Shown here piece after piece: positions 24,925-57,828 of a stretch of DNA of 57,828 nt (its first letter is position 1; the number at the start of each line of letters is the position of its first letter). Position numbers and translations under genes: made by a program. Source of the stretch: Girardia tigrina (Eukaryota); the NCBI GenBank assembly GCA_001938485.1, contig MQRK01226513.1, forward strand, positions 1 to 57,828. The letters are read 5' to 3'. The notes below the pieces were generated by a model. The model saw only the letters and a program-made list of their open reading frames with translations, had not been told where the DNA came from and did not search any database.

Positions 24925-27900
24925 TTAATTAAAATAATTTGGATTTGAGCGATATAACTGAGAATCATTGGGATTCGTAGATTGAAAATTAACTGAATTT
25001 TGTTGTGGCAATCCTTTTTGAGGCGCCATCATTTTTGAAAAAACTTGCTGAGAACCTTGATAATTAATGTTGGTTCCGTTAGACATTTGTGGATAATTTC
25101 CAGTTGGTCTAATCGAACCAGGTGGAGATTGATGATTTTGAATATAATTCAAATTATTCATCATGAAAGGTGGTCCCGAAGACGGAGAATAATTATTCAT
25201 CGGATGATTTGGTATTGGTATACGATTCATTGGAAGAGGCATGGGATTGGAAATCATTCCCGGTATGGATTTATTATTTGAAACGATATGATTACCCATT
25301 TCTTGAATATAGTTCGAGTTCAGTTGTTGTGATATGGCGGGATTATTGACATAATATGGTATTTGAGATTGATTTGATTGTGTAGATGTTATATTATGCA
25401 TTCGTTGGTGTTGAATCATTGAATTTTGAGGTACAGTTGTCGAGGAATAAACAGGGTGCTGGGCCATCATTGCCGGCTTATTCATCTGCCTTGACATTAC
25501 ATGACGATACGCTGGCATGTAAGAAGGATTGTTTCTTATCCATTCATTGAGCTGAAATCAAAAAAATATTTTAATTATTCTTTTGAAAAATAATTTTTAC
25601 TTTTAAATGTCCATCGGGCTGATTCAAAAGGTTCCCGTACATACTTTCTACCATTACAATCTCTTTATGTGACGGATACCCTTTATTTATGGCTTGATAA
25701 TTGCCATTTGGATACATTCCGCACTGGGAATTATTAATGTCACTCATATGAGAATTCATTGGAATAGGAACATTTTGATTCGTAGGATGGATATAATTTG
25801 ATTTTAAATTGAATGATTGATTGGTTGTCGGAGTATTGATTTTAACTGGAGTAAATTCTAAAGTGGTATTGTTGGAATTATTTGATAAAGGACCAGAATT
25901 TTGAACATATTGATATTGGGATTGGGCAATGGAATTATTTCCCGAGTTTACAATTTCTTGAGCTGAAGCGGAGGATGGATTATTCGAGACATTACTGTTA
26001 CAACGCATAAGTGCCGTTCGTCGTCGGAGAATTTGTTTTTGGAATAATCGCTGCTTAGTTTCTTGTTTTTTCAGTTTTTGTTTTATTTGTTGACAATAAA
26101 TGATCATACACTTTACATCCGTACAGAACTTGGCGTGATATGCTGACAATCTCACTACTGGTTTACAATAATTACATTTTAATCCAACAATACAGTTTTT
26201 GTTATGAGAAACGAACGATTTGAACTTTTTACAATTTGACATTCTACAACACGCATCTCTGCAAGTAGCGGCATGTTCGAAAATTTTGACTAATCGATCA
26301 AGTCTGCGCCGATTTGTTTCTTCGCAATTTTCATCGGATTTGAAACTGGAGGAATCATTTTCATCTTCCACGCCGGATCTGATCTTTTCGAGAGGATGGA
26401 TGTGTTTTTCTGTCAAATAGCATCTAGGGCAAAGATCATATTCTTCACAAGTTGGACAATGATATCTGGTTTCTATCTGAGCACTACAGGCATTACAAGT
26501 ATAACAGAAACTTTGTTTTGCTTCGTTATGTAATTCATAACACATCACTAATGTCGAGTATAAAGTTCTACGCAAATTGGAAAATTCCAAATGTTTCGCA
26601 CGAGCCATTTGGAGAAAATTTTCACGACCATCCATCAATTCCGATTCAATAGATTGATCAGGATCAACAATATCTTTGAGATTAGCTACATTTTTCTGTG
26701 GATGTAATCTTATAATGAAGAAGTTGTCTTTATGTTTCTCCATTATATCCAGTACCTTTTTAAAAAGCTCATTACCGGCATCACTAGAATCATAGAATTT
26801 TTTTCTCTTCGATGTTGCGATATTTGTTGTTTTTTTCTGTTTTCGTTTTTTGGGTTTTTTATTTCCAATATTATCTTTACTTATTTCATAAACATCAAGT
26901 GAATCGTTATCATCATCATCTGGAGCGATTTCTTTGGCTTTCAAATTATTTTGTTCAAATTCCTTTAAAATATCTTCAAATGCATTTGGCCAAAAATCTC
27001 CTTCAAAATACGGTATTTGATTAACTGAACTTATTGCTGATAAATGAGCGTCTTTAAAGACATCTTTGTAATCATCAATAACTAATTCTTGAATTCCTTT
27101 ATCCAACATTTTTGTATACCACTCCTGTAATCTCTTTGGCTTCGGAATACGTTGATCAGGGGGATGAATATGGAAAATATAATCATCTCCTTCACTTGGT
27201 GGACAGGCCCAAATATGAGCCATTACATAGCCCAACTTTTTCACATAATCTAAATATCCAACCAAAATCTCATAGTACACTTTAGTTCGGTGTTTGGATG
27301 GTTCAAAGAATTTAACAGAATCCAGATATGCCACATAAACTCGTCTTCTATTTGGTTCCGGACAATCAGATCCATATTCTTGAACATGTAAACCAAAAAA
27401 ACAAACTTCCCGACCTTGACACTCTTGAAAAGCAAAGATTGCTTTTGAACGATAGGGAAATGAAGTTTCTGCATCACCAAAATACGATTTCACTCCTGGT
27501 TTTACTTCTGTGACTTTTTTAACATTTGAAAGAACTCGAATGATAACATTGTCTGTTGTTATCTCATTTTTCTTGAAATAATCACTAACTCTTTTTTCCA
27601 AAAAATTACTCAATGTGCAAGACGACAAACGTTTAGCCGTATATTTATTTTCCCTTTTCTGTATATTATTTACACAATTTTTGCAATAAAATGTCGACCA
27701 TATTTCATCAATATGACAGGCGCATACTTTATGCCATTTTCGATTACATCTAGCACAAAACACAAATTCTTCATGAATTTCTACATTATTCTTTTTTTTT
27801 ACTAACAATTCTTTATTAACATTTCTAAAATATTAAAAAAAGTATTAAATTAGTTTTACTTAAATCAAGGAAACACTTACAAAAATTCATTAGATTCACA

Positions 27901-30900
27901 AAGAAATCTAACTTCAGTCGAACTATCCGAATAGCATTTTTCACAACACAAATAAGAATCAACCAACATTCCAGGAACCTTATCACTAATTGAAACTAGT
28001 AAAAACGTTTACATATCACGAAAATCTTACTTTGTACTTTCATTTTGATAAGCATAATAATGTGAATCCTTACTAATCGAACAACATTTTTCCGTACAGC
28101 ATACTAAAGTCAATGTTTGATAGACTTCAGCTCGACCACAACAAAATCCCAACTTTACCATCAACTCATCTATTTGAACTTGAAGATCATTCATACTCTA
28201 ACGATAAACTAAATTGATTGACAGATTAAATTTTATTGCATTACCTGTACAAAATCTTTTTTCGATTTTCCTTTTTTTTTAGTAGAATTACAAGAATTTA
28301 TCAAAATATTAAAATCATCAACAATCAGCCAGGGATTCTCATATTCGCCATCATCTAATTTTTGATTGATAATTGATAATGATACTGGCTTATAGTTTAT
28401 TTTAGAAGTATCAAAAGTATTTGAATTTTTCGAATCATTTAAACTCAAAAACGCTTGAACGTTTTTGTTATTCTTAATGAAATCAAAAAGTACTTTAAAT
28501 TCCGTATTTAATTCTTCTTTAGTCCATGATTTTAACGGAGAGTCTTGCTTATTGACTATTTCTACCGCTGTTGTTGTCATTGTGGTATTTGTTGCCGGAG
28601 CCGTTGTTGTAACAACTGTCATTTCTTGTTTAATATCTTTGACTTTAATCTCATTTTTCGATTCATCTTTAACATTATCGAAATCCATCAAAAGTTTTTT
28701 CTGTCGCTGATATTCATTTTGAAGAATTTTCTCAAAATGATTCAAATGATCCGTATCCGAACAATCTTTATTTAAATTGGAAAACAAATCGGAATCATTG
28801 TTATTATTTACAGAATTTTCCATCGATATTGTCGGTGATTTGGAAATAATTTCCGGATAAGTAACACAATTTTTCTGACTAATATTAAGTTTTTTGTGAA
28901 TAATAAAACAATTTTCTGCTAACAATCTATAATATTCATCTATTGTACTTGATTTCATGTAGCTATCGTTTTCGATCTTTTTCGCGTGATCGATTATATT
29001 TTTCATTCTTTCATCTTGATAGGCTTTACCGATTTCTTTTACCGGTAAAATTGTGCTAACTCTATTAATATTAAACATTAGTTAATAATAAAAATCGATT
29101 TTTTTTTATTTTGTAAATACACCTGTATACATTTAAATAGGGTATATATATCATAAAGTTACAATTACAAACAGATATTTAAAATTTGCTAATCAAAATT
29201 GAATGATTTTCCATTACAATAGAATATTTAAATTTAAATAGGCAATTGGACACAAGTAAAATCATTAATTGTTTAATAATATGTCTAATATAATTTATCA
29301 TTATTTTTCATGAAAAAAGGTTTTGAAAAAAAATATTTTTTCAAAAATTTTTCTTTAAATATTTTTATCTTGTTATAGGGATTTACGGGAAAATTATTTC
29401 TTTACTTATTTAACGAGAAATAAACTGAAACTATTAAAAAAACAAAAAAATGTAATACTGTGAAGTCCATCTGTTAATAGTAAATATTCATTTGTTAATA
29501 AATGTTTAATAAAAATAATTATTCGATATAAAAATCCAAAATAAATATAAATTATGGAAGAAAACCAAGAACGATTCGTGTGAATCTATCACAATCCAAA
29601 CTGTTATATTCGGTAAATTCGATTCCCAAAGAATACCCCAAACGAATCTAAGCCAAAAAACAAGACAGTACTCGACTGGTTTCAATGTTGCATGCCCAAA
29701 CAGAGAAATTATCATGATTACTGGGACTATTCTATTGGCTACTTGCAGAACCGCTTTTTCTGTTGTAATGTTGATCGGAGTCGTTGTCCGCCTCTGGTGG
29801 CCGGAATAAAGTATCATGAACTGAAAGAAATTAGACCGGTTAGAGAATCCGGGCTGGAAATGTCGTTTGATTATTACCAAATTGGTATATTATCCGATCC
29901 GGAAAAAATAACTCGAGTGATTTCTAGAATGGTCCATTGGATTAGAGATGACATCCTAGAGATGGAGATTCGATAACAGAGACCATCAATTGGACTATAA
30001 TTGCTTTTGACACTTGTGTTTCAATGAAAATAAATATATTTATATTTACTATTTTTTCTAAACTTTTTGTTAAATAAAAAGATATTGTGGAAAACCTAAA
30101 ATTTTCGGGTTTTTTTTCACATTTTCTGGGCTGATATGAACCGCTGGTCGGTCCTTGAGCTGGGAGCTGAGGATGAATTTGATATATACCCATACATATT
30201 TAAAAGTTAAATATAAGGATGATTTTTAGATTTCGATTTATTCTCTAATGGATACATTATAGTAATGATGGAACATAACAGTATTAATTATTTAAAAGAT
30301 TTATTAAACATAATATTCCACTTAATAATCTTAAATTTCTGTTTTTTAAACCATTTTCATAAACAGTAAAAATATCACCTTTAATTAATAATTGTAAAAA
30401 GAAATAATATTCAAATGAATAAAATCCGAATAATTAAACGGCATTTTACTTTTTGTTCGTAACAAATACCCTATTTAAATTATCAAAGTTTACAGGTGTA
30501 AGAAAATCCAAAATAATAAAAACAAAAATCAATAAAACTTACATTCTATTGATTAATCGACTTCGAATGTTCTTATCCACAGTGATTCGATCTTTCATTT
30601 TATTATCACAAATATCTGGCTTGAAATCGACACATTTTTTGTCCGAATTGTTGAGAGCATCGATTTCCGGATTGACAATCGATTCCTTCGATTCGTGATC
30701 GATATTATCGATTTTGTTTTTCGTACACTGTTGTCGCGATTTAATCGGTGCACATATGAGACAGGTGATTTTTCCACATTTTTTCCAATGTGATAAAATT
30801 CGTTTCGAAGTCGAACAATGAGAATAGGGACATTGTTTGTCTTTATTACACGCTGACATGTGGGACAAGACTTCCCTCATCATGGCACAATGGGGACTCG

Positions 30901-31054
30901 AGCACGGATTCATTCCGTTGATTTCGATGTGTTTTTGACAACGACAAGCATGGAAAATTAAAATCAATTGTTGTTGTATTTGTTTTCGTTTCTGGGCATC
31001 GTCTGATGCAATGGCATTACCATTAACACTAATTGACATTTCACGATATATCAT
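24925..31054 (-). CDS. CBP/p300 histone acetyltransferase, compact (~1,500 aa), about 6 exons
   Basis: TAZ1 (QQQLILIFHACRC..C..MREVLSHM..C, 30539-31054). KIX (DERMKNIIDHAKKIE..DEYYRLLAE) and bromodomain in the 28233-29078 ORF. Small RING/PHD exons ~27880-28200. PHD-HAT-ZZ-TAZ2 in 25571-27808 (YLDSV, HIWACPPSEGDDYIF, KRLQEWY, PYFEGDFWP). Q/P/N-rich last exon ends at 24925. Confidence 0.95.
29554..29976 (+). CDS. possible small nested antisense gene in CBP intron 1 (~122 aa, two CC pairs)
   Basis: GC-richer island in an AT-rich intron. ATG 29554 (MEENQERF) plus a 54-nt GT..AG intron (29578-29631) joins in frame to NTPNESKPK..DWFQCCMPKQ..FFCCNVDRSRCPP..EIR*. The donor GTGTGA is weak. Confidence 0.3.
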
Positions 31055-32599
31055 CAAATTTTACACTTCTAAAGCCAGGAAAAAAATGTTATACGAGTAA
31101 AAAAATGAAGAAAATTAGTTTTTTTTATAAATATCGATAAAAAATATTTATTGAAATTTAATTTAAAAACCGGTAGCCATTTATAAATATTATGTATAAA
31201 TATAAAACATATTTTAAACAAATAATAACCATATGAAATTTTCGAAAAGTATTTTTTTTGTTGTAGTAAAGTTTATTCGACAATTTTTATTACCTAATTT
31301 GTCAGAAAACGTAAAACAATTTTTTTGTAAAACAAACTTTTTTTTGAAAATTGAAATGAAATTGACAATTTAATAATTTACTTTCTTGATTTTTAATTCT
31401 TGAGAAATTGAGAAAATATTAAAAATTTACAAACAATTTAAAAAAAAATATTTAATGGATTTTTAAAAAAAAATTTATTTGAACCATAACCATATCTTGA
31501 AATACATATTTTTTAAACTTGGTAAAAAAATTAATTTATCATGTTCAAGAATTACAAAACATTGTAAATTAAATGTAATAAATTAATAATTAAGAAAAAT
31601 AGATAAGTTCTTGGATTTTCCTTATTATTTAAATAAATTAAGAAAAATTAATATCAGTTTTTTCGATTCTGAGCGATAAAAAATAATAGAATTGTATATA
31701 TATACAAAATCAAACTGATATCTCTAAGACTAATTTACAAAATAATGACAATTTAGTAAACGTTACATTAAAAATACCGTTCTTAGAGAGAGCAAATGAT
31801 TTCTAAAAATCATTAATGATAAGAACTTCCTCGTATTTTAAATTGAGAGTAATATTTACTGCAAGTAAAAAAATTAAGTTTCTTTTTAAATAAAACTAAA
31901 ACTTATGTTAGTGTGCAAGCAAACATATTTTACCAATATCAATGAATTGTATATTAGTGAGACGAACAGTCATCTTATAATTAGATTTACTGAACACACT
32001 CAATAGAGTAGAATTAACTCCATTCTTAATAATATATTACATAGCAAAGATTGAAATAAAGTCAATTGTAATAGCGAGTTTTAAATTTTGATAATTATGA
32101 GATGATAATCCCTGAAGCATTGTTAATTATGTATTCAAACCATGCTTAAATGTTTAAAGTGATTTATCTAATCATATATTGTTTAGTTTTTAAATATTTT
32201 TTAAATTTAAATAAATGAAAATTTTAAATAAGCCTAAAAATTGAGTGATGTTGAGTAAAAGCCTGTAGTTATATAAACGGCTTGAATTTTAAATTTTCAA
32301 TTAATCAACTGATGATACCAAAACTGGAGAAATATGTTTTAAATGTATATACAATTTAATTCTTTTTTTAACACCCAGAACCGTAAAATAAACACATATA
32401 TTTGTTTACCATCGCAATAAAAAAGTACGGAAATTAATTACAATAAATTTATGATTACGAAATAATTTAATGTCTTGGTGTTGATTATTATAAAAATCCT
32501 ATTTAGAAATCTCTGTTCATACAACGCCTCAGATTTCCAATACAGATGTGGAAGCCTGAAATTCAATTCTCACGATTCACTCCACGAGAAAATTTGGCA

Positions 32600-35629: not shown

Positions 35630-36030
35630 TCCCTTACAAGACGAGTCCCTGAGTGGAACTCGTGAGACGACTACACATTCCCGAAGGAAGTTATCAGCCC
35701 TGAAAGAGTAATAATTAATTAAAAATCAGACAGAAAACAACAAAGTTGCTCACCGGGGTAACCAACAGAGTTAGGAGGTCAACCGACCCTCCCATGAAAG
35801 AGCATCGCGAGTACGATTCCTGAGCGAAAATCGCAGAGCCTCGGCACCTTCCTGAGAGAAGATATAACCCCTAGAAAGATTCAAAAGTTAATTAACAAAT
35901 ATAAAATAATTAATTAAACTTATCATGACTCAACAGCAAAACACGAGATCACCAGACGACCATGAATCATCAGTGAATAATCTACGCGTGTGTCCTGAAA
36001 ATATTAACGTATGTGTCGACACACAATTAC
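35630..36030 (-). mobile_element. fragment of the distal (intron-bearing) part of the long LTR family, inverted
   Basis: The reverse complement matches 38030-38290 and 49030-49300 (..taag..ttaattaa..ag|gggttatatct). Confidence 0.6.
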
Positions 36031-36037
36031 AGTAAAT

Positions 36038-38330
36038 TGTCACGACCCCTTTGAGTAGAAACATTTCTGATGACTCAAGATCCCCCAGTGATTGTTAAGG
36101 GTCAACCACAACCCATTCAGATTTTATTTCACTTTTAGACGTTATTGTGTAACAGAGTCGGACGCCTCCTGTCTTGCCTGACATCTGTCCAGCAGTGCCA
36201 AGCTCAAGGGACCTTCGGGTTCGATTCAAGACAGGACGGGCTGTGGGCTCCCCGCCCAGCTCAATATCGTTCGGGGATGACTTTGTATTATTTGCTCTTT
36301 CGATGAAGGTATCGCTCAGGTTTGTGTAGAATGTGTTGATGATTGCAACTCGAAATACTGGTATGTGATATGTATGGTCAACTTGCGGCAATGTTGTGTC
36401 TGTATGCGGACTTATGGCACTGTTGTATAATGCGGGTAACTAACGGCCCGATTATGTATCTTGTAGTGTTGACGTCTCCACTTGTCTAAAATCATTAATT
36501 ATATATCATCATATATTCATATAATATTGTGTGTCATTAAGTATATTCGCTTAATATTATTAAATATCGCCAACAACAATTAGATATTTTATTATGTATA
36601 TCAAGTATTACTATGTATCGTTAACACTGTATATTGTTCTGTATAATTAGCAGTTTATCTTTACTCTATATCAACCAATTTCGTATCCACTTATTTATAG
36701 TGCAGCATTATATATGTAACAGCATATATATCAATAATTATCTATTTTTATCGATTTATTTTACAGCAGTTTTGCTCATCAACAGCAGTTCTTTATTCAC
36801 ATCTAAATTTCTTCTGATTCGACGAGGCTTCTTTTACTACTCAATTTTCTCTGCCAGTCGTACTTGAATGAATAACTAGTCGGCGTGTCATTCCTATAGA
36901 GCATATATCTCTTTAATTTTCTAAGCGAATCTCTTATTGGTTTATCAGCCTCATTTATCAATGACAGATTATTACTATTCGTGTCTCTAAAAGTGAAATC
37001 TAAAAATAGAATCATTATTAGTTTATTTACATTTATATCAATAAGCAAGCGTCTATACAATCCTTTCGCGTCCATCGACTGGGTTAAAACGTGATAGATT
37101 AATTCATTATTGTCCCGTATCGACGGACATAGCATCACTCAAATAGTTATCTACGCATAACGTGATTCTCTTTTGCGTATAGTTCAATAGAATCGATCTC
37201 ACGCCTGTGATAAGTATAATTCTCATTTCCTGTTCTCTTACGGAGTTCTCATTGTCGGCGTAAGTTCTCGCATTATGCACAAACTCAAGGTTTCTGTTAT
37301 CAGAACCATTCTGCGCGTGGTTATCTCGGAACATCTCTTGTGAGGATGGCGGCTACGATGACGACTGGGAAACTTACTCTCTCTCTATCTAACTTATCAG
37401 AATGAAATAAAATTTAAGGTTAGTTTGTATTAATTATAAAAGTAAAACCCATATCTATAATACATATATTCAGAATCATCAAAGAAATGAACAAATGTAA
37501 ATAAAATTACAATATGTTTGGTATCCGGAAGTCCGTTCTCGAAACGTCTGTAAGTCTTTCCTCAAATGGTCCGTTCGTTCTCAAGATCTTTCGTTTGGTG
37601 TCGGTCGTTTGTAAATCTCGTGCATTCGAGTGGTTCTCTGTTTTGGATTATTCTCAATAATTTCTTATGGTTCTTTCATGTTAATAATTCTCTATGAGCT
37701 CAAATTATTTAAAATCGTTCAGAATTGTTCAATTATGGTTTTTAATTTTCGTTCTAAATTGTTTTAAACAGTGTCTAAAAGTTGTCTAAAAATGGTCGTC
37801 CTTTATACCACGGTTCTGGCATGCTATCACTCTATGAATTCCAATCGCAATCTGCCAACGAAGAATCAAACACATCTCTCAATCGTGGTTGGCCAGTTGT
37901 TGGTGATTTCGGAGTGTACGTGTCAGTGTGCCTCTAAAATTTTTTCGGTAATTTTGATTTTATATAGGAATTGATGATTGTGTGCTTGTAGGTCGCTGGT
38001 GTCATGCGGTTCGTGAATCATGGGTTAATCATCGTGAATAATCACACGGTGATTTCTCGTGGATTTTTTGCTGACTCACGTAAGTCTTAATTAATTTCTT
38101 ATATTTGTTAATTAATTCTTCCAATTATACAGGGGTATATCTCCGTCGGGGAAAGTTTTATCAATTTACGGATTTCAACTAGGGATGCGGCTCAATGAGA
38201 GCTTACTGTGAAGGTTCGGCTGGTCTCGCAAGTCTTTTGGGGAGTTCGGCAAACAAGGTTGTTAATTTTTCAGGTTCGTATTTAATTAATCTGGGAATTT
38301 CTTAGACTAATGGCTTTATTAAACTTCTGG
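36038..38330 (+). mobile_element. long LTR-like unit, copy A (TGTCACGACCC family)
   Basis: TG start and first ~350 bp shared with 45873 and 56163. Distal intron-like block shared with 49030-49300. 3' end not defined. Confidence 0.65.
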
Positions 38331-38335
38331 AATCC

Positions 38336-39105
38336 TGTAGCGAGCTGCCATGAAGAATCTACGAGGGGAGGAGCCGCTCTATCTTGTTGCAACTGCAATA
38401 CTTATTCAAATACATGTATTTTACGTTATTGCTTCTCTTTTTTCTTTTCGACGTTTTGTAATGCATTACATGAGTTGGTGAAATTCGGACCGCAACAAAA
38501 TCAAGTTATCAAAAATTTTTGGAGACACACGGGCAAGTACACACCAAAAGCCAAAGTGCCCGACCAACCAGCATCGTAGAATTTTGCAGACTTCTTATTG
38601 GCGGAAGACCATTGGCCGCGATGAGATAGCGGGGTGTTGCATCTACAATATAAAATAACAGTCATTTTTTCAGTTGACGAACACATTTTTGAAACCAAAA
38701 TAATAGCTACACTTACGTGTTACATTGAATCATAACTTTGCTGAAGAAAATCCAAGCGAAGATTAGAACAGTTGATCTACGAGCATCACCGCAGACGAAA
38801 GGAACGACAACTTATTAGTAAAGACCGGCGGCATCACTGAGCAGGAAATCGACTGACGAATTTACGACACCGAGAGGACGACCGCGAAAGACATTTCGTG
38901 TAATCGACGTGTCGACGAGCGAAAGGACGAATAAATCGACAGATACCGCCTATTGAGACATTCTCTAAGTCCCATTGAACTTCTTTTACTTGTAATTATT
39001 ATTGTATAAAACTAAAAGAGAATTGCTTTTTTTATAGGTTAATTCAAATGTTAATTTATAATAAATCAAATCTCTCTCCGTTTTATAACTTTATATGTGA
39101 TTACA
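38336..39105 (+). mobile_element. possible solo LTR of another family
   Basis: TGTAG...TTACA ends, GC-rich body, AATAAA near the 3' end. No matching TSD seen. Confidence 0.35.
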
Positions 39106-39270
39106 AAATAAGCAAAAGATAAAATGACTTTTTTTAAAGTGTAATTCAACTGTAAAAAAATAAACACCAAATATATTACACACAGATAATCACTAAAAAC
39201 TTACGATAAATCAGTTTCAGAAATCATATATATCATATATATTTTCTTTATAGCAGGATCTTGGGTTTGA

Positions 39271-39490
39271 TTGTTGAAACAATCGTGATGTTAAATAAAT
39301 ATTCTGCGATACAAAAATAAATTCGTTGTTGAAACAATCGCGATGATAAATAAATGTTCTGCGATACAAAAATAAATTCGTTGTTGAAACAATCGCGATG
39401 ATAAATAAATGTTCTGCGATACAAGAAATAGATTCGTTGCTAAAACAATCATGATGATAAATTAATGTTCTGCAATAAAAGTATTCGTTG
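39271..39490. repeat. 55-bp minisatellite, ~4 copies
   Basis: Units ttgttgaaacaatcg(c/t)gatg..ttctgcgatacaaaaataaattcg start at 39271, 39326, 39381 and 39437. Confidence 0.95.
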
Positions 39491-40899
39491 AAAAAAAAAC
39501 TGTATCTCTCCAGTAACGTTCAAAATCAACAAAATATAAATTTAAATTATTTATGGCTACTAGACAATTCAATCAATATATTGGATTGCATTATATTCGA
39601 ATTATTTTTGAATTTTTATTATAATACAAAATTATAATTTGTGGCCTTTTAAATAAAAAATAAAAAAAACCAAAAAAAATATTATTTTGCCAACTACGTA
39701 TAGAAAAATAAAAATTACTTAATTTTTAATTACATTTCTAAAAAAGCTGATTCTTCTTCACACAGAATTCTTTAACTTTCTCGAATAAGGAACTAAACTA
39801 TCATTCTCAAAAAATATCCAACATACTCCACATACATGTATATAAAAACTGAATCGCAAACCCGATATACGTCATGCTCAAGAAAGCCTATGTACAAACT
39901 CGAAAGAAGGGTAACATCAATTTTTACTCAAGACACGCGGAAGTAGTGTATCACAATTATTATTGCGCATATTAATCTATTATAGTTTAATTTATTAATC
40001 TGAATAAATGTATTCTATAATGCTAATTTTCCTTTTTAAATATCAATAACCATTAAATTCGAGTCCCGACCGCTTAGCGCCCGATTTAGGCGGATCCCCT
40101 CCCAGTCATCGCTGTTGTCCCGTGTTAATTCGCGAAGTTCCACATGGATTTCGGCGATCAGTCGAAAACGTCCTTCAGTTCAAATCTGGATATCACGTTG
40201 GGGGTCCAGAATAGAGAATTAAAACAAATAGGAATTTCTGATGATTAACTACATTGGATCGGCTCTGATTTTATTTCAACCTACTAACATAAATAGTGTA
40301 ATTCCCCACCTCTATCTCTAGTACTTAGTATCATTAAATATCTCTTAAAGTTATTAGCACGGTTTCAGGCGACTTTTGTTCGGTGGACAACGGCGCATTT
40401 ATAGACCATTAAATTAAAATTGCAAATAATTAAAATTCTTCATAATCTGATAATGAGAAATAGAAAGCCCTGATGGAGGTGTTGCAGGCCGCACCGTGAG
40501 CTTGCTCTGAGCGGTCATCAACTACCACCACCAGTGATCCTTTCTTTTCAAGAAATAATAATAATTAATAAATAGAATAACTCCTTATTAACGATAACAG
40601 CATAAGACATCAATTTCTGAAGAATGATAATAGTACTAACAAATTAATGAAACATTCTAATAAAATAATAGAGAAGTAATGATTAATAGTGTAGTACTAA
40701 TTGTAATAAAATATAATGGTAATAGTAAAGTACTTGTGTCAATGGCGATGTGTGACGTGCCAGCGCTGCATGAAATTCATTTGTCTTGAGTGTGAATTTA
40801 AGAAGATAGCCAGAGTAAATGAAGTGCATATAAAACCATACCCCTTAGACCCTGTTTCCTCCGAACGGAGACTACTCGTTGTCGGATTGAACCCAAGGG

Positions 40900-43028: not shown

Positions 43029-44463
43029 CTAATATTCTTCATCGATGGTCGTGTCTTGAAACTGCTGATATTCACTTATCAAATCATTTAAATTTGATTC
43101 AGCTTCAGTAAATTCCATTTCATCCATACCCTCTCCAGTGTACCAATGCAAGAAAGCTTTTCTTCGATACATAGCTGCATATTGTTCGGCTATTCTTTTG
43201 AAAATCTCTTGAATTGCAGTATTATTTCCAATGAATGTTACAGCCATTTTCATTCCTCTCGGAGGAATATCACACACAGCTGTTTTAACATTACTGGGAA
43301 TCCATTCTACAAAATAAGCACTGTTCTTGTTTTGCACATTTAACATTTCTTCATCAACTTCTTTAACCGATAATCTTCCTCTAAACATAGCCGCCACTGT
43401 TAGATACTTCCCATGACGCGGGTCACAAGCAGCCATTAAGTTTTTGCAGTCAAACATTTGTTGGGTCAGATCATGAACTGAATATGTTCTATATGGTTGT
43501 GAATGACGGCTGGTTAAAGGTGCAAACCCGGGCACAAAGAAGTGTAAACGAGGAAAGGGAATTAGATTAGTTCCTAATTTTCTTAGATCTGCATTTAATT
43601 GACCTGGGAATCTCAAACATGTTGTTACTCCTGACATTGTTGCACTAACTAAATGATTTAAATCCCCATATGTTGGATTACTAAGTTTCAATGTTCTAAA
43701 GCATATATCATAAAGAGCCTCATTGTCTATTGTAAATGTTTCATCTGCCATTTCAACTAATTGATGTATTGCAAGAGTAGCATTGTACGGTTCAACAACC
43801 ACATCTGATACCTATAAAACAATATATTAGATAAGTGTTTAAATATTATTACCTTTGGAGAAGGGTAAGTTGAAAAAGTGCACACTATACGATCTGGAAA
43901 TTCTTCTCGAATTTTGCTCAGCAAAAGTGTTCCCATTCCAGAACCAGTTCCTCCACCAAGAGAATGAACAACTTGAAATCCCTGTAAACACTCACAAGCT
44001 TCAGATTCTTTTCTGACTAATTCTAGAACAGAATCGATAAGTTCTGCTCCATCAGTATAGTGTCCTTTAGCCCAATTGTTTCCCGCTCCTGTATGTCCAT
44101 ATGCAAAATTGTCAGGACGGAACAAACTTCCATATGGACCACACTTGACAGAATCCATAGTACTAGGTTCCAAATCAGTTAATATAGTTCTCGGTACCAG
44201 TCGACCACCTGAGATCATAAACAATTTCGTTTACAAACGTTCTATCAAGTATACCTGTAGCTTCATTATAATAAACATTAATTCTTTCTAATTGTAAATC
44301 ACTATCTCCTTTGTAAAATCCATCAACGCTTAATCCATGTTCATCTGATATAACTTCCCAAAACTGAAATTTTATTTTATAGATAAATGAACATTTCAGG
44401 TCTAACTTTAGCTCCCATTTGATTACCACACTGGCCGACCTGAATGTAGACTATTTCACGCAT
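43029..44463 (-). CDS. beta-tubulin, divergent, 434 aa, 4 exons (44463-44407, 44363-44255, 44208-43853, 43811-43029)
   Basis: [15 protein letters not shown] start, [43 protein letters not shown]. Three GT-AG introns of 43, 46 and 41 nt restore the frame. Confidence 0.97.
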
Positions 44464-45872
44464 TTTAGATGTAATTGAGGCTCTTCTTTCTACGTGTTGC
44501 TAAGCTTTATCTAATTCTAATCGATGATTTTAAAATTTTAAAATGGATTGATTTTCAAAAATTTCTAATTTAAATAATGTTTATAAGAAAATTGCTTTTA
44601 TTACTCAAAAGTTTTGTATCTTATTTCAGCATAATGACTTTGAATCTAAAACAAAAATAAAATGAAGCATACTTAATCTTTTATAAATTCGGTCTTGATT
44701 TTTCATTTGTGTTTAATAATTTTAATTTTATTTTGTACATTTTCTAACAGAATACTCATTTTTCAATTAAGAAATTTGAGTTTTATTTTCAAGTTTTTTA
44801 TTATTAAGAAAAAAGTGGAAGTTACAGTATGAATCAATTGTACAATAATCATCTCTATTATATTTTTTTGTGTTTTCATCATCAAAATGAGCCGTAATTT
44901 TTTTTCATTACAATAAACATTGTATTTTTCTATTTCTTTATTTTACAGCTAATTTAATTATTTTCCGTCTTTCGATCACAATATTTATTGGATTCATATC
45001 CCCAAAATTGCTCTAAACCACTAGAATTATCGATTTCGCTCGTTCTAAGTAATCACTGCATCTATCACTTCCATAATAGCTATCAGTGGCTAAACGATAT
45101 ACGAAAAGATTTATTTTTCTTAGCGGGAAAATATTACTACCGTCTGAATGTTCAAAGTTTGAAAAATTATCTTTGATCGACTAATCAGAATCGCAATCTG
45201 CGTTTACTTAGTCAATGTATCCATCAGATTTGTTTTAGCCTGAATCCATTAGTCTCAAAAAATCTGGAACTGTAGATATTTCAATGGATGTATATTGTAA
45301 AATTGTAATGGTAAAGTATCGGGAAACGACAGTGAGGAAGAGGAACTGTATCCAACCTCTCCATAATGACTGACATAAGTGCAAAAGGAACAGTTGAATT
45401 GTGCAAATACTGATAATAGTTACAACTATAAGAGACACAATGCACAAGGACACTTATGCCAATTAGGTGGCAGTGAATCGCCTTAAAAATTCTCAATGGC
45501 CATTAATTTACTCATTTTCATTAATATCTCAGAATTTTTTGATCCAACAAGCTTTAATCGAAAGGGAGTTTCGACTCCTAAGATAATAAAATTGGAACGA
45601 TCAGATTGAGTATTGAAAGAAGAACTGTAGTATACACTGCACGACATAAGACAAGGATGAAGAGATGTCACATAGAGAATCGGCAGTGGTAAGTTCTTCC
45701 TTGGGACATGTTTGAAGGCGAAGGCAGTACAAGAGATCTCTCAATACATCTGTCGTTCTTAGCAATTATTGTATGAGGAAGTTGAAGTGGCCTCCAACAG
45801 GATGGTGCAACAACAGGATGGTGACCTGTTGGTTCACATTGTCTCCTTTCGATCAACCTAGATGGAAGGAAG

Positions 45873-48800
45873 TGTCACGACCCATTCGTTTGTAGCAGTT
45901 TTGAACGCTCAGAGTCCCCAGTGACTATTAAGGGTCAGTCAAAACCCGATTTCAGCTTATACTATTTCATAGACTGTTTTAATACTCATTTAAATGCTAG
46001 ATTTATTTATGGGTCGGACACCTCTTCTCGCTCGACATCTGCCTGACAGTGCCGAGTCTGAAGGGCCTGCGGGTTCGGATAAAGACGGGACGGGCTATGG
46101 GCCCCCCACCTAACTTAGAATCGATCGGGATATGTTTCGTACAAATATTCATCAGTAGATTTGGATCACGTCTATGCTTAATAAGTATGCTGAAACTTGT
46201 TGTACGGTTATGTCGATCTATAACTTGTGGCCTTGTGTTAAGCGATGTTGAGCTTAGGGCAATGTTGTGTAATGTGGCTTGCAGTACTGTTAGGTTTCTA
46301 GGAGTATTACCAATAACAGTATATGTCGTTATCGTTGTGCAGCTCATTTATCTCGCAGCATATCGACAATCAGTCCCTTTGTACCTCGCACGGATTCATT
46401 GTTTCCCTACTATATAACATATAACAGTTGCATTTATATTCATATAACTTGTATTGATATAATTTATACTTATGCCAGATATATTTATATCAATCAAAGT
46501 AATTATTAATATCATGATTACGTCGCATATACTTATATTCATTTACACAATCATTAGTATCAGAGCTAAGTAAACTGATTAAATCACGAAATTTGTTCGA
46601 TCACTATCGCGTCAAATTCTTTAAAATATCCTATTATTTCGATTTGGTAACCTTACACCAGAATCAATTCAGAGTTTTTAATAAGATTGAAAAACTAACT
46701 AAATCAGCGTTTTCAATTTTCCGTGGTTAAATAACAATTTATTACATTAATAATTTCGCGATGAATTAATTATCTCAGTGAATTCTCACTTATGAGCTGC
46801 AATAAAAAATATTAATTCATAACATTTCTTTACTAGGGATTCATTAGCTTGTAATTTTATTAAAAGAAATCTCAATTTAACTTTCAATTTAACTCTCAAT
46901 TTAATTCCAGATAAAACAAAATTCTACTAAGTTGATTGTTGGATATTAGATATTTTAATTATTTGAAATATTTAATATTTACTTTTTTGATAAATATTTT
47001 GTTTAAATATTATCAATTAAACATTGTTTTGAAAATAAACTTTTCGCATGTTACAAGCTATCCGGTAGAGAAAGACGAAGACCGCCTTATCTAAATGATT
47101 ACATTGTGGATTCAGATTCTTCTGTGGACGAATCTGGTGGGAGTGTTGGATATTAGATATTTTAATTATTTGAAATATTTAATATTTACTTTTTTGATAA
47201 ATATTTTGTTTAAATATTATCAATTAAACATTGTTTTGAAAATAAACTTTTCGCGTGTTACATTGATATTCATAAATTGATAAAATAATTACGTTAATAC
47301 AGATCGGCGGTTGTAGAAATTCCAGTTAAGAATTTTAATTTACAATTCCAGTTAATAATTTTAGTTAACGATTCGAGTTAATAGTTTGCAGGATTTCCTA
47401 GAAACAATTCACGTAATTAGCTAACTCATAGAAATAATAATTCATAATCTAATTCAAAAATCCTAAAATTAAAGTAAATGGTGAAAATTAATTAAATTAC
47501 TCCTAAAATTCAATTGCAATCCTAATTTCTTAAAACTCGTGATAATGATAAGACTTCATCAAAAAAATTGTTTTATCGATACAAATTGCATCGCAACCTG
47601 TAGACACATTTTCAATTTTTAGAAACATTTTAATGGAAAAAGAATTTTAACCTAATTTCTTATGAAACAACCGCATAGAAGAGGTAATTCTTTACATTTT
47701 TATAATCCTCACTTTCTGATCTCAATTTTCATTCCTTGCAGTTCGTACAAGTCAACTTAGTTATGTTTATCCGACTAACTCCGAAACTACGGTAAATGAA
47801 ATTTCTAGATCAAAATTCTAAATTCTAAATTAATTCTCTATTTACAAACTGTAATCGAAAAACCGCATCCCTATTTACTATATATATCATCTAAAACCTC
47901 TAAACCGTATTATTGATAACTAATATTCAATTATTATTAACGAAATTCCACTTTAAAAATCAGAAATAAAAAAAACAAATTAACAAAATGACTAAAATTA
48001 TGGGAAAAAGCTATATTTGAAATTCAAATGTTCCCCGAATACTCGGTCGTCTGACACGGGTAAACTCGTGCTCCCGCATCCTCGGTAATTAACTCAGCGC
48101 GGCTCTCCCGAGGGAACGATTCTAGGGGCACCGAAACTACTTCGACGATAATCGGGTCGGTGTGATTACCGACGCTCCTCCAGCGCGCGTTTGAGCGCAA
48201 ATTCTCTCGGGGCATAATTGAAGGCGACGACGGCGGGGCGACGACTGTGGTTAAAAGATTAAATAAACGATGGGAACACGATCGTCCGTGCTTATGATGC
48301 CCCTATTTGACCTATTAAACGATATTAGACTGAACGATTAATAACAACGCTGTTTGTTCACGCTTTCCGGGCAATCACTTAAACTACGACATTGACACAA
48401 TAAAATCAAAACGTATATAAAAAAAATAATAATAAAAAATTGTAAGGATTTTGCCCAAATACTTTTATTGTGTAAAACTAAAGAGTAAAAAAAATAAAAT
48501 TACATCAAAATCACGCGGTGCGTGTAAGTGCCCGGAGGTCCGCTCGGTGAATTGCTCGTCGTTAACTCGTGTAGGCTCCTCTGTTCGTCGACGCGTCTCC
48601 GGATAGAAGTGTCCCTTTGGGTATCGTGGATCGATTTCGGTAATAACGAGAGATTCGTAGATGTTACGGTCCTCATCTAAACTCGGTCCAATGTTTTCTT
48701 TTCGAAGTCCTTCTCGGTAAATTGCGTTCGCGGTTGCGTTGAAAATCGACGTCAAAATCGTGCGTGAAAATTATAAGAAAATTTTTAAGATAAAATTGTG

Positions 48801-49596
48801 GAAAAATTGTGCGAAAAATTGTGATTGAATGTTTTATTTATAACACTCACCATTTCGTTTGTCGGGGTGTGTTCTAATCGTGGCCGCTTCTGGTTGGCTG
48901 TTACCAGTAATTTCGGGTTTCTATTTGTAAGGGCTGGTTGTTTTCATGCAGCATGTCCAAACTGCTTTGTCACAAGGCTCCTTTGTCACCGATGACTATT
49001 CATCGCGTGACGCTGCTCTTTCTTTGTGGGCCTGACTCACCGTAAGTTTTATTTACTGTACTTTGTTTCACTTAATTGGCCTTTGTTCTTCTTTAATTAA
49101 TTTATGTATCTTTTCAGGGGTATAACTTTTCAGAGGAACGTGTCAGGACTTTGCGGGTGACCTTCAAGGATTCCTCGTCTTCGGGGCTACAAGTGGATGG
49201 TCCGTTGGTCTTATAACGTTAATGGCTCGCCCTGGAGGTATTCTTTGTCATTTCCTGTCTGGTTTTTAATTGATTATTTTCTTTTTAGGGTTGATAACTT
49301 TTCAGGAGAGTACCTCACGACCTGGTGAGTTTTCTTCGAGGGTTTGTCTTACAACAGGCTATACGTGGAGGGTCGGCTGGCCTTCTACGCATAATGGGTC
49401 GTCCAAGAGGTGATTTAATTATTTTTTTTCTTTTTAATTAATTGTCTTCTTTTTAAAGCAATTAACTCCTTTCTCAGCGTTTTCGAGGTTCGGCAGTTCC
49501 ATTCCAGAGATACATTATATTATTTGGTTCTTCTCATCGGGTATGCTTTCATTTCACTTGTTTGATTTTCCTTATCTCTCGTTTTTAGTTGTGATA
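45873..49596 (+). mobile_element. long LTR-like unit, copy B (~3.7 kb including nested TRIM)
   Basis: Starts TGTCACGACCC directly after the purine tract GATGGAAGGAAG (PPT-like). Candidate end TGTGATA (49590-49596) is an imperfect inverse of the start. Confidence 0.65.
46937..47262 (+). mobile_element. TRIM / miniature Copia-derived LTR element
   Basis: 119-bp LTRs 46937-47055 and 47144-47262 (TG..CA, 1 visible mismatch), 5-bp TSD TTGAT, 88-bp interior ending in the purine-rich GGTGGGAG. Confidence 0.92.
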
Positions 49597-51080
49597 TAAT
49601 GCTGCCTCTCCGACATGGATGATCAAAGACGATCCAGGGACCCACCTTTTGTGTCAATAGTGATTCAAATAAATGTATTGATCTCATGGGTCTTTCTTCT
49701 TTATATTCTTTTTCTTAATGTTTATAACCATATGTATTTTATATTATGTATTTGATTTCTCGACCGCAACAGAAGCAAGACTAGAGTACTTCCTAATTGC
49801 CGGAAGTGAGGGATAATGTAGTGCGCAAAGAGATATGTAAAAAGAGATTCGTTTCGTCCTACCAAATTGTTCGGTAGATTACTGTATCTCTGGTCTCAGG
49901 AAGTGACCTTCATAGATTCTATACATGGAAATGGGGTAAAAAAAAGCCATAAAAACTGGTCTATGTGATTCTATACATGGAAATTGTGTCGAATCATGTA
50001 ATGACAGGAATATGGTACAACTGGTCCCAGGGAGTGACCTCTATAGGCTTATATACACCGAAGTGGGTAGAAGAATATATAAATGGGAGTGCAGTGAAAT
50101 GGCCATATTAACATATCGATAACGGATCAGTGGAGTTGTAGAGTCCCCAGGGAGCAGATGGTATCAGTTTTCTGGGTGTGTAGAATGTATGTTTGGTGTG
50201 TGTAGTACCTGTGTGGCGTTTGTAGTGCTTATGTGGTGCCTGTGTGGCGTGCGGACACGATCACTCAATTGAAGGGTGCGTGGAGAGGTCGCTAATGAAA
50301 GAACTACTGTGGAAACCAGGGCACGTGTAAAGGTCGGCTTAGGCTCGATACATTGTGCGAATTAATGTATGTAAGAACGGGGAACTTTTCCTCACAGACA
50401 AAAAAAATAAAGATTAGGATCGACAGTGGTAACTGTGTCACCTTTATCATAAAAAGCTGAATGAGGTCACGAATCAACAGGGTACGCACCATAAGTCTGG
50501 TAACGTTTGACAATGGATATCCTGGGTAAAGTGCAACTTTGTGCGATACAGCTTGATGATTTTAACGTGGGTACTGCAGAAGAGATTTATGTTGAAAGAA
50601 TAGCTGCAGATGTCGACATGATCGTGGGATAATAAATTATTCTGAGACATGGATTAAACATATAGGTAGTAGGTGAGAAAATATGAATAACTTTTGGCCC
50701 TAACTGAACAAGATTATGATTCTCACTGCAGTTTCTTGACTTGAAATGGAGAGTGTTTAGAGAAGAAGAAATATACTTTATAGAACATTTATTCTTCATG
50801 TAAAAGTCGGTGATTTTATTTTGTATTTGTTTGTGATTTTCATAAATTTTAAAATATCTGTCAAACCAACGCGGTAAAAAACCTAAGTAATTAATTTATC
50901 TACAATTTAAATTAACATTTTAATTAAATAAAATCTTATCAATGTAGTCAAATTCCTTTGAATTCATTCAGTTTTAATTAATTATAGTTTGACCATTATT
51001 TTTTGGAGAGACAACATTCATTACAACATACTATACCTCATATAATACATGAAATTGACAAACGATCACACAAAGAGAGA

Positions 51081-56162: not shown

Positions 56163-57828
56163 TGTCACGACCCATTTGTTTGTAACAATTTTGCGCGCTC
56201 AGAGCCCCCAGTGGCTATTAAGGGTCAGCCACAACCCGGTTGGAATTTATTACTCAACTACGATCACTTTGTCACGACCCATTTGTTTGTAACAATTTTG
56301 TGCGCTCAGAGCCCCCAGTGGCTATTGAGGGTCAGCCACAACCCGATTTCAGTCCGTACTATTTTACTAACTGTTTTAACACTCATTTNNNNNNNNNNNN
56401 NNNNNNNNNNNNNNNNNNNNNNNNNNNNNNNNNNNNNNNNNNNNNNNNNNNNNNNAAGGGCCTGCGGGTTCGAATAAAGATGGGATGGGCTATGGGCCCC
56501 CCACCTAGCGGAGTGTCGCTCGGGGATGATTTTCCTTTTTGAACTAAAATTTGATGCCTTAACCTCTACGATGAACAACTCGCATTTAGCTGTATTGGAA
56601 TTATATAACTAGGGCCGTCACAACAGCCTTATAAAATCATATTTCTTAAAACAATAGCGCGCTATAGGGCTGAACAATCAAACCCGCTCTTGTTCGTACA
56701 GGAACCTAACTTATAAAACGTAGGTTAAAACTCCTACAACTAATATGGTCAACTTCTGAATCCCTCTTCGTCTTAACTCGTAGAGTATGACAAACCCTCA
56801 TTACGATCATTAACCGTTTTTATTATTACTGACGCCTAGGAGTAAACAATCAACAACAGCACTAATAGAATTTATCTCAACTATTAGGTGAGCGCGTTTG
56901 CAATTCTCTATAACTCGATTTACCTATTTTATTCTCTTTTTTATTTCATCGAGTTAATTGACTAATTTCGCAATTCAATTCCGATAGCAGTGAAGTTTAT
57001 CTAAAATCGTTCTTGAGGGGATAAATTATTTCACTTTGCTTTAAATCCTGATAAAAAAAATACTAAATTATAGAATGGTAACTCCCTAGAATTTGATTAA
57101 ATTATCGCTTATAAATATCACTACTATCCTAGGAATTTGACAAAATTAAATTTACCCAAAACACGAATGTTTTCCCCTAACCAAAATGCGGTAAAAAATT
57201 AATTATAAAATTAATTCAATGATAAATCAATTGTAAAACCTGTCTATAATAAGACGATCACGCGAATAGAACGGGGACTCTTTTATCGAACGTAATTTTA
57301 ATCGTAGTCTTTATGAATTCCTTATTTCTCTTTATAAACTTATTTGGGAGAATAATATTCGCTGAATTTAATCAACAAAATTAATCGAAATAAATAAAAC
57401 GAATTGAAGATAATAATTACGTAAAACTAATGTCAAAACTTTACTTATGTAGAACTAATCATTTTACTCCCATTTAAAACAGAACAGCTATCGTTCGGGT
57501 AGTTTAGTCTTACACTATGATACGTCAAAACCCGATAAAAATCAGTAAATAAAATACGGTCTAGTAATAAAAATTCACACTACTCTGTCCTTATAATTTT
57601 GACTTAAAAAAAAAGAAACGTAAAACCGTAAATAGTGGAAGATTACTATAAAACACAATTATAATCATCAATAAAATATTCTGAATTCCCCAAACATTGA
57701 AGCCTTTGTAATCATTCCTAATCAAACATTTTCATTACGCTTTTCAATGAATATCCTCTTATTTTTATTTTAACCCTGTATTTCGCTAAACTCTGTACGT
57801 TAACTACTTACAAGTCACTCAAAAAAAA
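56163..57828 (+). mobile_element. long LTR-like unit, copy C (first ~76 bp repeated at 56270), probably extending beyond the window
   Basis: TGTCACGACCC start and conserved GC-rich block matching 45873-46110. Confidence 0.65.

Follow-up and report, generated by a model that had tools for sequence, protein, structure and literature searches.

We analyzed a stretch of 57,828 nucleotides of Girardia tigrina DNA (contig MQRK01226513.1, positions 1 to 57,828; hereafter the window), and found that three related units in it, A, B, and C, are pieces of the long terminal repeats (LTRs) of a giant Ty3/Gypsy element resembling Burro. The primary Burro paper is reportedly that of Grohme et al. 2018. We are highly confident that the LTR of this element contains a spliced transcription unit in the antisense orientation, that is, an array of short exons and introns running against the element itself. 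The initial annotation of the window had described a conserved, spliced, apparently non-coding transcript within multi-kb LTRs of a Burro-type giant element, and our analysis supports that description. It had also called the transcript sense, and this had to be reversed: judged by the primer site, the polypurine tract, and pol, the RNA is antisense to gag-pol.

The units were recognized as LTRs from their ends. LTR A has TG..CA termini and a 4-bp target duplication, GAAG (45869-45872 and 49772-49775), and its sister copies stop sharply at 49771. Since A and B are both bounded by LTR ends and 4-bp target duplications, they are solo LTRs. LTR C, which had been noticed as an inverted relative near 35630-35960, is inverted and broken, and is the host of LTR B. 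A further insert, about 979 nt long (39001-39979) and with short tandem repeats near 39270-39490, also breaks its sequence, and RNA contigs of two sequencing runs, X1 and X5, connect 39000 to 39980 across this insert. Nine sister LTRs had both ends visible; they were 2.9-3.9 kb long, and 4-bp duplications were present in seven of them, while the remaining two adjoin an internal region. The stretch is a repeat, for which a first look in the 1.43-Gb genome gave 1,275 candidates, 40 of them scored. When the units were compared with one another, the homology scores were 76-148, against shuffle maxima of 64-89 (six comparisons, 200 local shuffles per pair). Thus the similarity exceeded all local shuffles, and the proposed homology of the introns between divergent copies held. 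A Penelope or hammerhead origin, considered on account of nearby Penelope-like fragments, was ruled out by the LTR ends, the primer site, and the Gypsy pol. A fourth LTR fragment (a 3' end, partly tandem-duplicated) lies at 56163-56532, beside a GIY-YIG fragment labelled Penelope-like by eye.

The orientation was read from loci in which an LTR is attached to an internal region. At one of them (L051), a primer site complementary to tRNA-Pro directly follows the GTGACA end, on the strand corresponding to the window minus strand. The genome holds 176 such primer sites, against none in the reversed control, and matching tRNA-Pro(TGG) genes are present in the host genome. A polypurine tract stands ahead of the TGTTGCGG end, on the coding strand for reverse transcriptase (RT), RNase H, and integrase. 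The LTR adjoining it in locus L101 is of the A type, and a B-type LTR stands next to the same tract in locus L071, which gives the orientation of LTR B. In 19 of 20 regions taken beside internal-region matches, the edge of the LTR showed a short purine run. Because the primer site, the polypurine tract, and pol are on the other strand, the exon array is antisense, and it lies within the first 900 nt of the LTR.

The features are listed in Table 1. The introns that the initial annotation had placed (introns 1 and 2 of LTR A and intron 1 of LTR B) were borne out at exactly those positions, as were the further duplicated unit, consisting of exon 3 and intron 3, and the TGACTCA beside the first donor in both LTRs. 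The exon-intron units repeat every 170-173 nt in A, B, and C. GT is found at the column of intron 4 in 9 of 28 aligned copies, which form one sub-lineage.

Table 1. LTR units of the window and features of their antisense arrays.
Feature	Position	Strand	Basis or remark
LTR A (solo)	45873..49771	- (element sense = window minus)	starts TGTTGCGG at 49771, ends GTGACA at 45873
LTR B (solo, 2460 bp)	36038..38497	-	4-bp target duplication AAAT; sits within LTR C
LTR C, first piece	35631..36037	+ (element sense = plus, by homology)	5' end missing
LTR C, continuation	38498..40255	+	BLAST to C-type loci; 3' end not found
Candidate intron 0, 45 nt, GTAATT..CAG	48907..48951	+	sequence; same-rank intron absent from sister-lineage processed copy L159
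Exon 1	48952..49041	+	5' limit inferred from candidate intron 0; 3' end by RNA join
AP-1-like palindrome TGANTCA (putative site)	49033..49039	.	TGACTCA here; 1-4 nt ahead of first donor
Intron 1, 76 nt, GTAAGT..CAG	49042..49117	+	GT 28/28, AG 28/28 aligned copies; X1 join
Exon 2, 120 nt, tandem unit 1	49118..49237	+	alignment of units
Intron 2, 51 nt	49238..49288	+	X1 GT..AG join
Exon 3, 121 nt, tandem unit 2	49289..49409	+	59% identical to exon 2
Intron 3, 49 nt	49410..49458	+	X1 GT..AG join
Exon 4, 82 nt	49459..49540	+	limits set by RNA joins of introns 3 and 4
Intron 4, 48 nt	49541..49588	+	X1 GT..AG join, 2 contigs, depth 107; absent from initial annotation
Predicted poly(A) signal AATAAA of antisense RNA	49668..49673	+	other lineages have AATACA or AATATA
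LTR B antisense intron 1, 53 nt	38080..38132	+	GT 14/14, AG 12/14; AP-1-like TGACTCA at 38072-38078
LTR B antisense intron 2, 57 nt	38249..38305	+	GC donor in window copy, GT in 12/14
LTR C antisense introns	35871-35923 (first donor mutated to AT) and 35700-35753	-	TGAGTCA at 35926-35932

The junctions were looked for in RNA. Run X1, which is unstranded, joins all four introns of unit A, three of them called as GT..AG, and the strand of the RNA was read from the GT..AG polarity of the joins against the orientation of the element. The join at intron 1 was 49039>49118 with two variant letters, and the contig therefore comes from another LTR copy. The X1 mapping gave no join for candidate intron 0 (48907-48951). 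X1 also skips three host tubulin introns, and one tubulin contig of 1,113 nt differs by a single base; this match indicates that X1 is RNA of the same or a very close species. The joins are not variants in the genome, because the motifs of junctions 2 and 4 had no genomic site, as compared with 55 sites for the border of exon 2 and intron 2 (junction 4 had no positive control of its own). Thus genomic intron loss was rejected as the origin of the joins. A loose motif for junction 1 gave seven matches (two in the reversed control), and among the six examined, five were unrelated DNA and one was a processed copy, L159, which is described below. Two other joins were not accepted as splicing: 49511>49632 is the same as a genomic deletion in loci L002 and L009, and 46931>47263 equals the empty site of a nested element.

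We compared the splice sites among copies. In 28 copies of LTR A, donor 1 and acceptor 1 were kept in every copy, donor 2 in 26 (with one GC in addition), and acceptor 2 in 25; retention in copies of LTRs B and C was similar. Within a lineage the intron bodies are as conserved as the exons (0.91-0.98 against 0.90-0.93), and at this level the claim that splice signals are better kept than exon sequence did not clearly hold. It did hold between lineages, where the exon units are 42-59% identical, in a near-gapless alignment. Since the aligned copies are top BLAST hits and their intron bodies are equally conserved, we regard the cross-lineage comparison as the stronger test. In a set of 19 LTRs chosen solely for attachment to an internal region, 18 carry antisense introns in nt 1-900. 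The set contained 30 antisense acceptors and no sense acceptor, while block shuffles gave 2-3 (maximum 9), and no acceptor was found in LTR nt 901-2600. A hexamer resembling a poly(A) signal lies at LTR nt 42-170 in 18 of the 19, and TGANTCA stands 1-4 nt ahead of the first donor in 14. The centre base of this motif is C, G, A, or T, a variation such as would be expected of a palindromic DNA site. To judge from these patterns, the splicing of the array is probably under selection across the LTR lineages.

The position of the array relative to the sense promoter was considered as follows. A sense TATA box, TATAAA, is predicted at 48837..48842 on the minus strand, and the motif stands at the equivalent place in 10 of 10 A-like LTRs; moreover, 25 of 29 sister alignments break off at 48751-48826. 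From the TATAAA site and these breaks we infer that the border of U3 and R lies here. One internal-region end (L130-L149) is joined to LTR lineages that are only about 68-92% alike where alignable. Together with the alignment breaks, this variety of LTR lineages on one internal end suggests module swapping at the U3/R border. In addition, a sense micro open reading frame (ORF) of about 60 codons, starting with MPRENL, lies at 48024-48215 on the minus strand behind an acceptor-like sequence, and is present in 7 of 10 A-like LTRs. It is possible that this micro-ORF is an accessory gene borne by the LTR; the LTR's own sense frames gave nothing significant in Pfam.

The processed copy (L159:1245-1707, G000:C217653), which was found via the loose junction motif, is an insert of 463 nt within a MITE-like repeat, for which empty sites exist elsewhere. 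Two introns of its sister lineage are missing from it, one of which is upstream of the first intron of the initial annotation, where the window has candidate intron 0. Its beginning is on the transcribed side of the TATA box, 44 nt from the first T of that motif and close to the predicted U3/R border. It showed no poly(A) and no clear target duplication, and its 79-nt tail matched nothing among the sequences compared. L159 is a single copy and is possibly truncated. As L159 is no LTR, it does not breach the rule that the LTRs keep their introns. At the DNA level, it attests to the existence of the spliced antisense RNA and, for the sister lineage, to its covering the predicted core promoter.

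The longest frame with an ATG in the spliced window copy is 47 amino acids, which agrees with the absence of a long ORF noted earlier. A frame that appeared conserved by eye failed the codon-position test, and peptide coding was rejected: the mismatch by codon position was flat (0.47/0.51/0.51, p=0.33), with no bias between or within lineages. A conserved RNA structure was also rejected. That is, when 22 single exons were folded, z was below -2 only in three copies of A exon 3, and there was no common fold across lineages. Rfam gave no match at E<=1 for 34000-57828. The antisense RNA is thus likely to be non-coding, as far as its sequence indicates.

In the content of its internal region, the element resembles Burro. 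On one strand, its coding region contains, in order, a capsid, a zinc knuckle, a ubiquitin-like domain (weak scores), a fusion glycoprotein of the Monjiviricetes type, a protease, a dUTPase-like domain, RT, RNase H, and integrase. The order protease-RT-RNase H-integrase was found in one open frame (L108). The fusion glycoprotein (PF24664) is upstream of the protease and in frame (E 1.4e-58 in L106 and 2e-25 in L108), and the capsid and zinc knuckle are further upstream in L110, with weak scores. The dUTPase-like domain between protease and RT was below the Pfam cut-off (E 0.002-0.006). Just before the fusion protein, the matches to Bcl-xL were only weak (best E 0.28), and Pfam gave no BCL2-like match. 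MATH, BIR, ankyrin, and other cargo domains were absent from the 11 element-derived frames scanned against Pfam, a 7-kb leader lying outside that scan. Summed from two copies, the internal region would be about 24-25 kb, namely 7.3 kb from the primer site to the gag frame (L181) and 17.3 kb from the gag frame to the polypurine tract (C218898); no copy was seen complete. The polyprotein frame (L108:1763-9466 and sister copies) runs more than 1,100 codons beyond integrase and ends in a membrane-spanning stretch; this extension had no confident Pfam match.

Other features of the window may be mentioned here. Inside LTR A, at 46937-47262, there is an element resembling a terminal-repeat retrotransposon in miniature. 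It consists of two 119-bp LTRs, which differ by one base, and an 88-nt interior ending in a purine run, and it is flanked by a 5-bp target duplication, TTGAT. In the RNA runs X1-X4 its coverage ranks with the deepest of the stretch. The position of its primer site reads AGCTATCCGG, which may resemble the complement of the 5' end of tRNA-Lys. At 43029-44440 on the minus strand, about 1.4 kb downstream of LTR A and in the same orientation, there is a divergent gene for beta-tubulin, whose three short introns are spliced in X1. A CBP/p300 gene with very long exons occupies 24925-31060, also on the minus strand.

We then compared the unit with known systems; the papers cited here by PMC number were accessible in part, and the statements refer to those parts. 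The element resembles Burro/GYPSM1 in its multi-kb LTRs and its domain order (PMC6431247), and by the summed spans its internal region would be of similar size, that of Burro reaching about 25 kb in an element of over 30 kb. LTR introns and antisense RNA are absent from the accessible part of that description (PMC6431247). It also differs in the frame of more than 1,100 codons past integrase, and in that MATH, BIR, and ankyrin domains were unseen in the pieces scanned. The initial annotation had named Ogre together with Burro. The Burro likeness stood, while that to Ogre is loose: Ogre is a giant Gypsy element with long LTRs and splicing (PMC6431247, PMC3735527), but it is a plant element whose sense RNA is spliced between ORFs (PMC3735527).

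Spliced antisense RNAs from LTRs are known in deltaretroviruses, and AS1/AS2 of bovine leukemia virus (BLV) are short, spliced, and probably non-coding (PMC10186651). However, BLV AS1/AS2 and hbz of the type 1 human T-cell leukemia virus (HTLV-1) originate in R/U5 of the 3' LTR, and hbz is protein-coding (PMC10186651). In the present element, in contrast, four or five introns and a predicted poly(A) site lie in one LTR, and the exons are tandem duplicates; because all of these are within one LTR, solo LTRs carry the whole unit. The Steamer-like MchSLE-1 is an invertebrate LTR retrotransposon whose 3' LTR drives an antisense RNA, but that RNA has a 67-codon ORF and an internal ribosome entry site, and the accessible part of the report describes no intron array (PMC10974842). 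Spliced enhancer-associated long non-coding RNAs (lncRNAs) show a further likeness, namely efficient splicing of poorly conserved exons beside a regulatory element (PMC7035876). Those are mammalian host enhancers, whereas the LTR unit is mobile and is copied with the element; at most it would work like one, and it is not a member of that class. Sense lncRNAs from flatworm solo LTRs are also known (PMC4558846). Our literature search, whose reach did not include the primary Burro paper with its supplements, Repbase, or most subscription papers, brought up no description of an antisense unit of several exons that is enclosed in one LTR or U3, and a look-up by sequence gave no look-alike. Thus Burro elements and spliced antisense RNAs from retroviral LTRs were known already, and what appears to be new is a tandem exon array enclosed in U3.

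As for the function, we lean, at slightly less than an even chance, to the reading that the antisense unit keeps the LTR promoter active by an action in cis. The splice and poly(A) signals are kept and the module is duplicated, while the exons have drifted; this points to the act of transcription and splicing. We favor a benefit in cis because a gain in cis is inherited by the copy that has it. The antisense RNA would start at or just past the sense start site, cross the TATA box and the AP-1-like site, run through two to four tandem exon-intron units, and end at a poly(A) signal, some 100 nt away from the 5' edge of the LTR. It is likely to be confined to U3. What is selected may be repeated splicing beside the promoter and not the sequence of the RNA; such splicing could keep U3 open or shelter it from silencing. 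Among enhancer lncRNAs, splicing is associated with enhancer activity although the exons are poorly conserved (PMC7035876), and splicing or introns can circumvent silencing by HUSH and by PIWI-interacting RNAs (piRNAs) (PMC11599104). Because the introns are on the opposite strand, beyond the spliceosome, the genomic RNA cannot lose them, and each new LTR therefore inherits them. A wider proposal, which we consider possible but doubtful, is that in Burro-like elements U3 has come to house a self-contained, host-like antisense gene rich in introns, by which every LTR, solo LTRs included, would license its own promoter via the spliceosome or mask it from PIWI silencing. The unit would then be a protein-free counter-silencing device, whose module was amplified by tandem duplication and copied intact on the opposite strand.

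Several points weigh against this reading of the unit. The X1 junctions stem from a single run, in which the contigs were assembled, unstranded, and aligned at 80% likeness, and the junctions are not assigned to this locus. Runs X2, X3, and X4 gave no junctions, X2 and X3 carrying only small shares, and among the matches listed there was no RNA join for the introns of LTRs B and C. At intron 1, the depth of intron-retaining contigs was about 560, against 23.5 for the join. The copies aligned for splice-site retention were top BLAST hits. The thresholds of the intron finder were set with these introns already known, and some known introns were missed. Selection for the act of splicing alone leaves unexplained why exons of about 50% identity align almost without gaps. 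Furthermore, for an RNA that crosses the TATA box, interference is as natural an outcome as activation.

This last point leads to the reading that the unit represses the element in cis. Antisense transcription across the TATA box and the AP-1-like site would interfere with sense initiation, acting as a switch for latency or cell type, and would be stopped before host DNA by the internal poly(A) signal. L159, which spans the predicted TATA box, is in line with this, and the retroviral antisense RNAs HIV-1 Ast and HTLV-1 hbz promote latency (PMC10186651). However, L159 is one copy only, sense and antisense transcription of HTLV-1 are reported not to interfere (PMC10186651), and repression would not obviously need several duplicated exons. 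We consider this reading unlikely. An action in trans, as a self-limiting antisense RNA or a piRNA precursor directed at the U3 segment at the genomic RNA's 3' end, seems to us quite improbable. The RNA is the complement of U3, most transposon piRNAs of planarians are antisense, BURRO1 rises upon RNA interference of smedwi-2 (PMC8532177), and the processed copy shows that the spliced RNA was stable enough for capture. On the other hand, piRNAs are reported to derive preferentially from unspliced transcripts (PMC11599104), and selection at the level of the element for silencing itself would be weak.

The tandem units might instead be enhancer or nucleosome-phasing repeats at the DNA level (about 120 nt GC-rich plus 50 nt AT-rich), with splicing as a by-product. 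The regular period in all three LTRs, the near-gapless alignment of the units, the variation of TGANTCA, and the seemingly small spliced share at intron 1 would fit such repeats. But GT, AG, the pyrimidine tract, and a branch-like motif recur on one strand only, at about ten times the level of composition-matched shuffles, and a poly(A)-like motif accompanies them; we hold a pure DNA repeat to be similarly improbable. Very improbable, in our judgment, is a micro-gene for an accessory peptide of 30-70 residues, perhaps with alternative last exons. Of 28 A copies, 24 retain an ATG at 48992, which opens 68-69 codons in 11 of the 28, and one frame is free of stops over 30 codons in 4 of 6 unit types. 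Against this, the ATG frame stops at 30 codons in 12 of the 28, a stop interrupts the open-looking frame of the unit types in 8 of 9 exon-3 sequences, the frame at the junction of exons 1 and 2 differs among A, B, and C, and codon-position bias is absent, as described above. Finally, the initial annotation had thought of spliced leader exons for gag-pol. If the strand were unknown, exons placed close to one LTR end and accompanied by a poly(A) signal would resemble R-U5. The exons are, however, on the strand opposite to the primer site, the polypurine tract, and pol, at the 5' end of the LTR, and the motif resembling a poly(A) signal that follows them is still inside the LTR. The chance of sense leader exons is close to negligible.

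The antisense array shows that an LTR element can keep introns through reverse transcription simply by placing them antisense. If the unit does keep its promoter active in cis, the hundreds of dispersed LTR copies, belonging to many lineages, with varied exon numbers and natural donor mutations, would be a ready-made test of what splicing near a promoter does, whether it supports activity or shields from silencing. Our findings also call for caution, as spliced, polyadenylated "lncRNAs" in transcriptomes of the planarian type can be LTR-internal antisense units.

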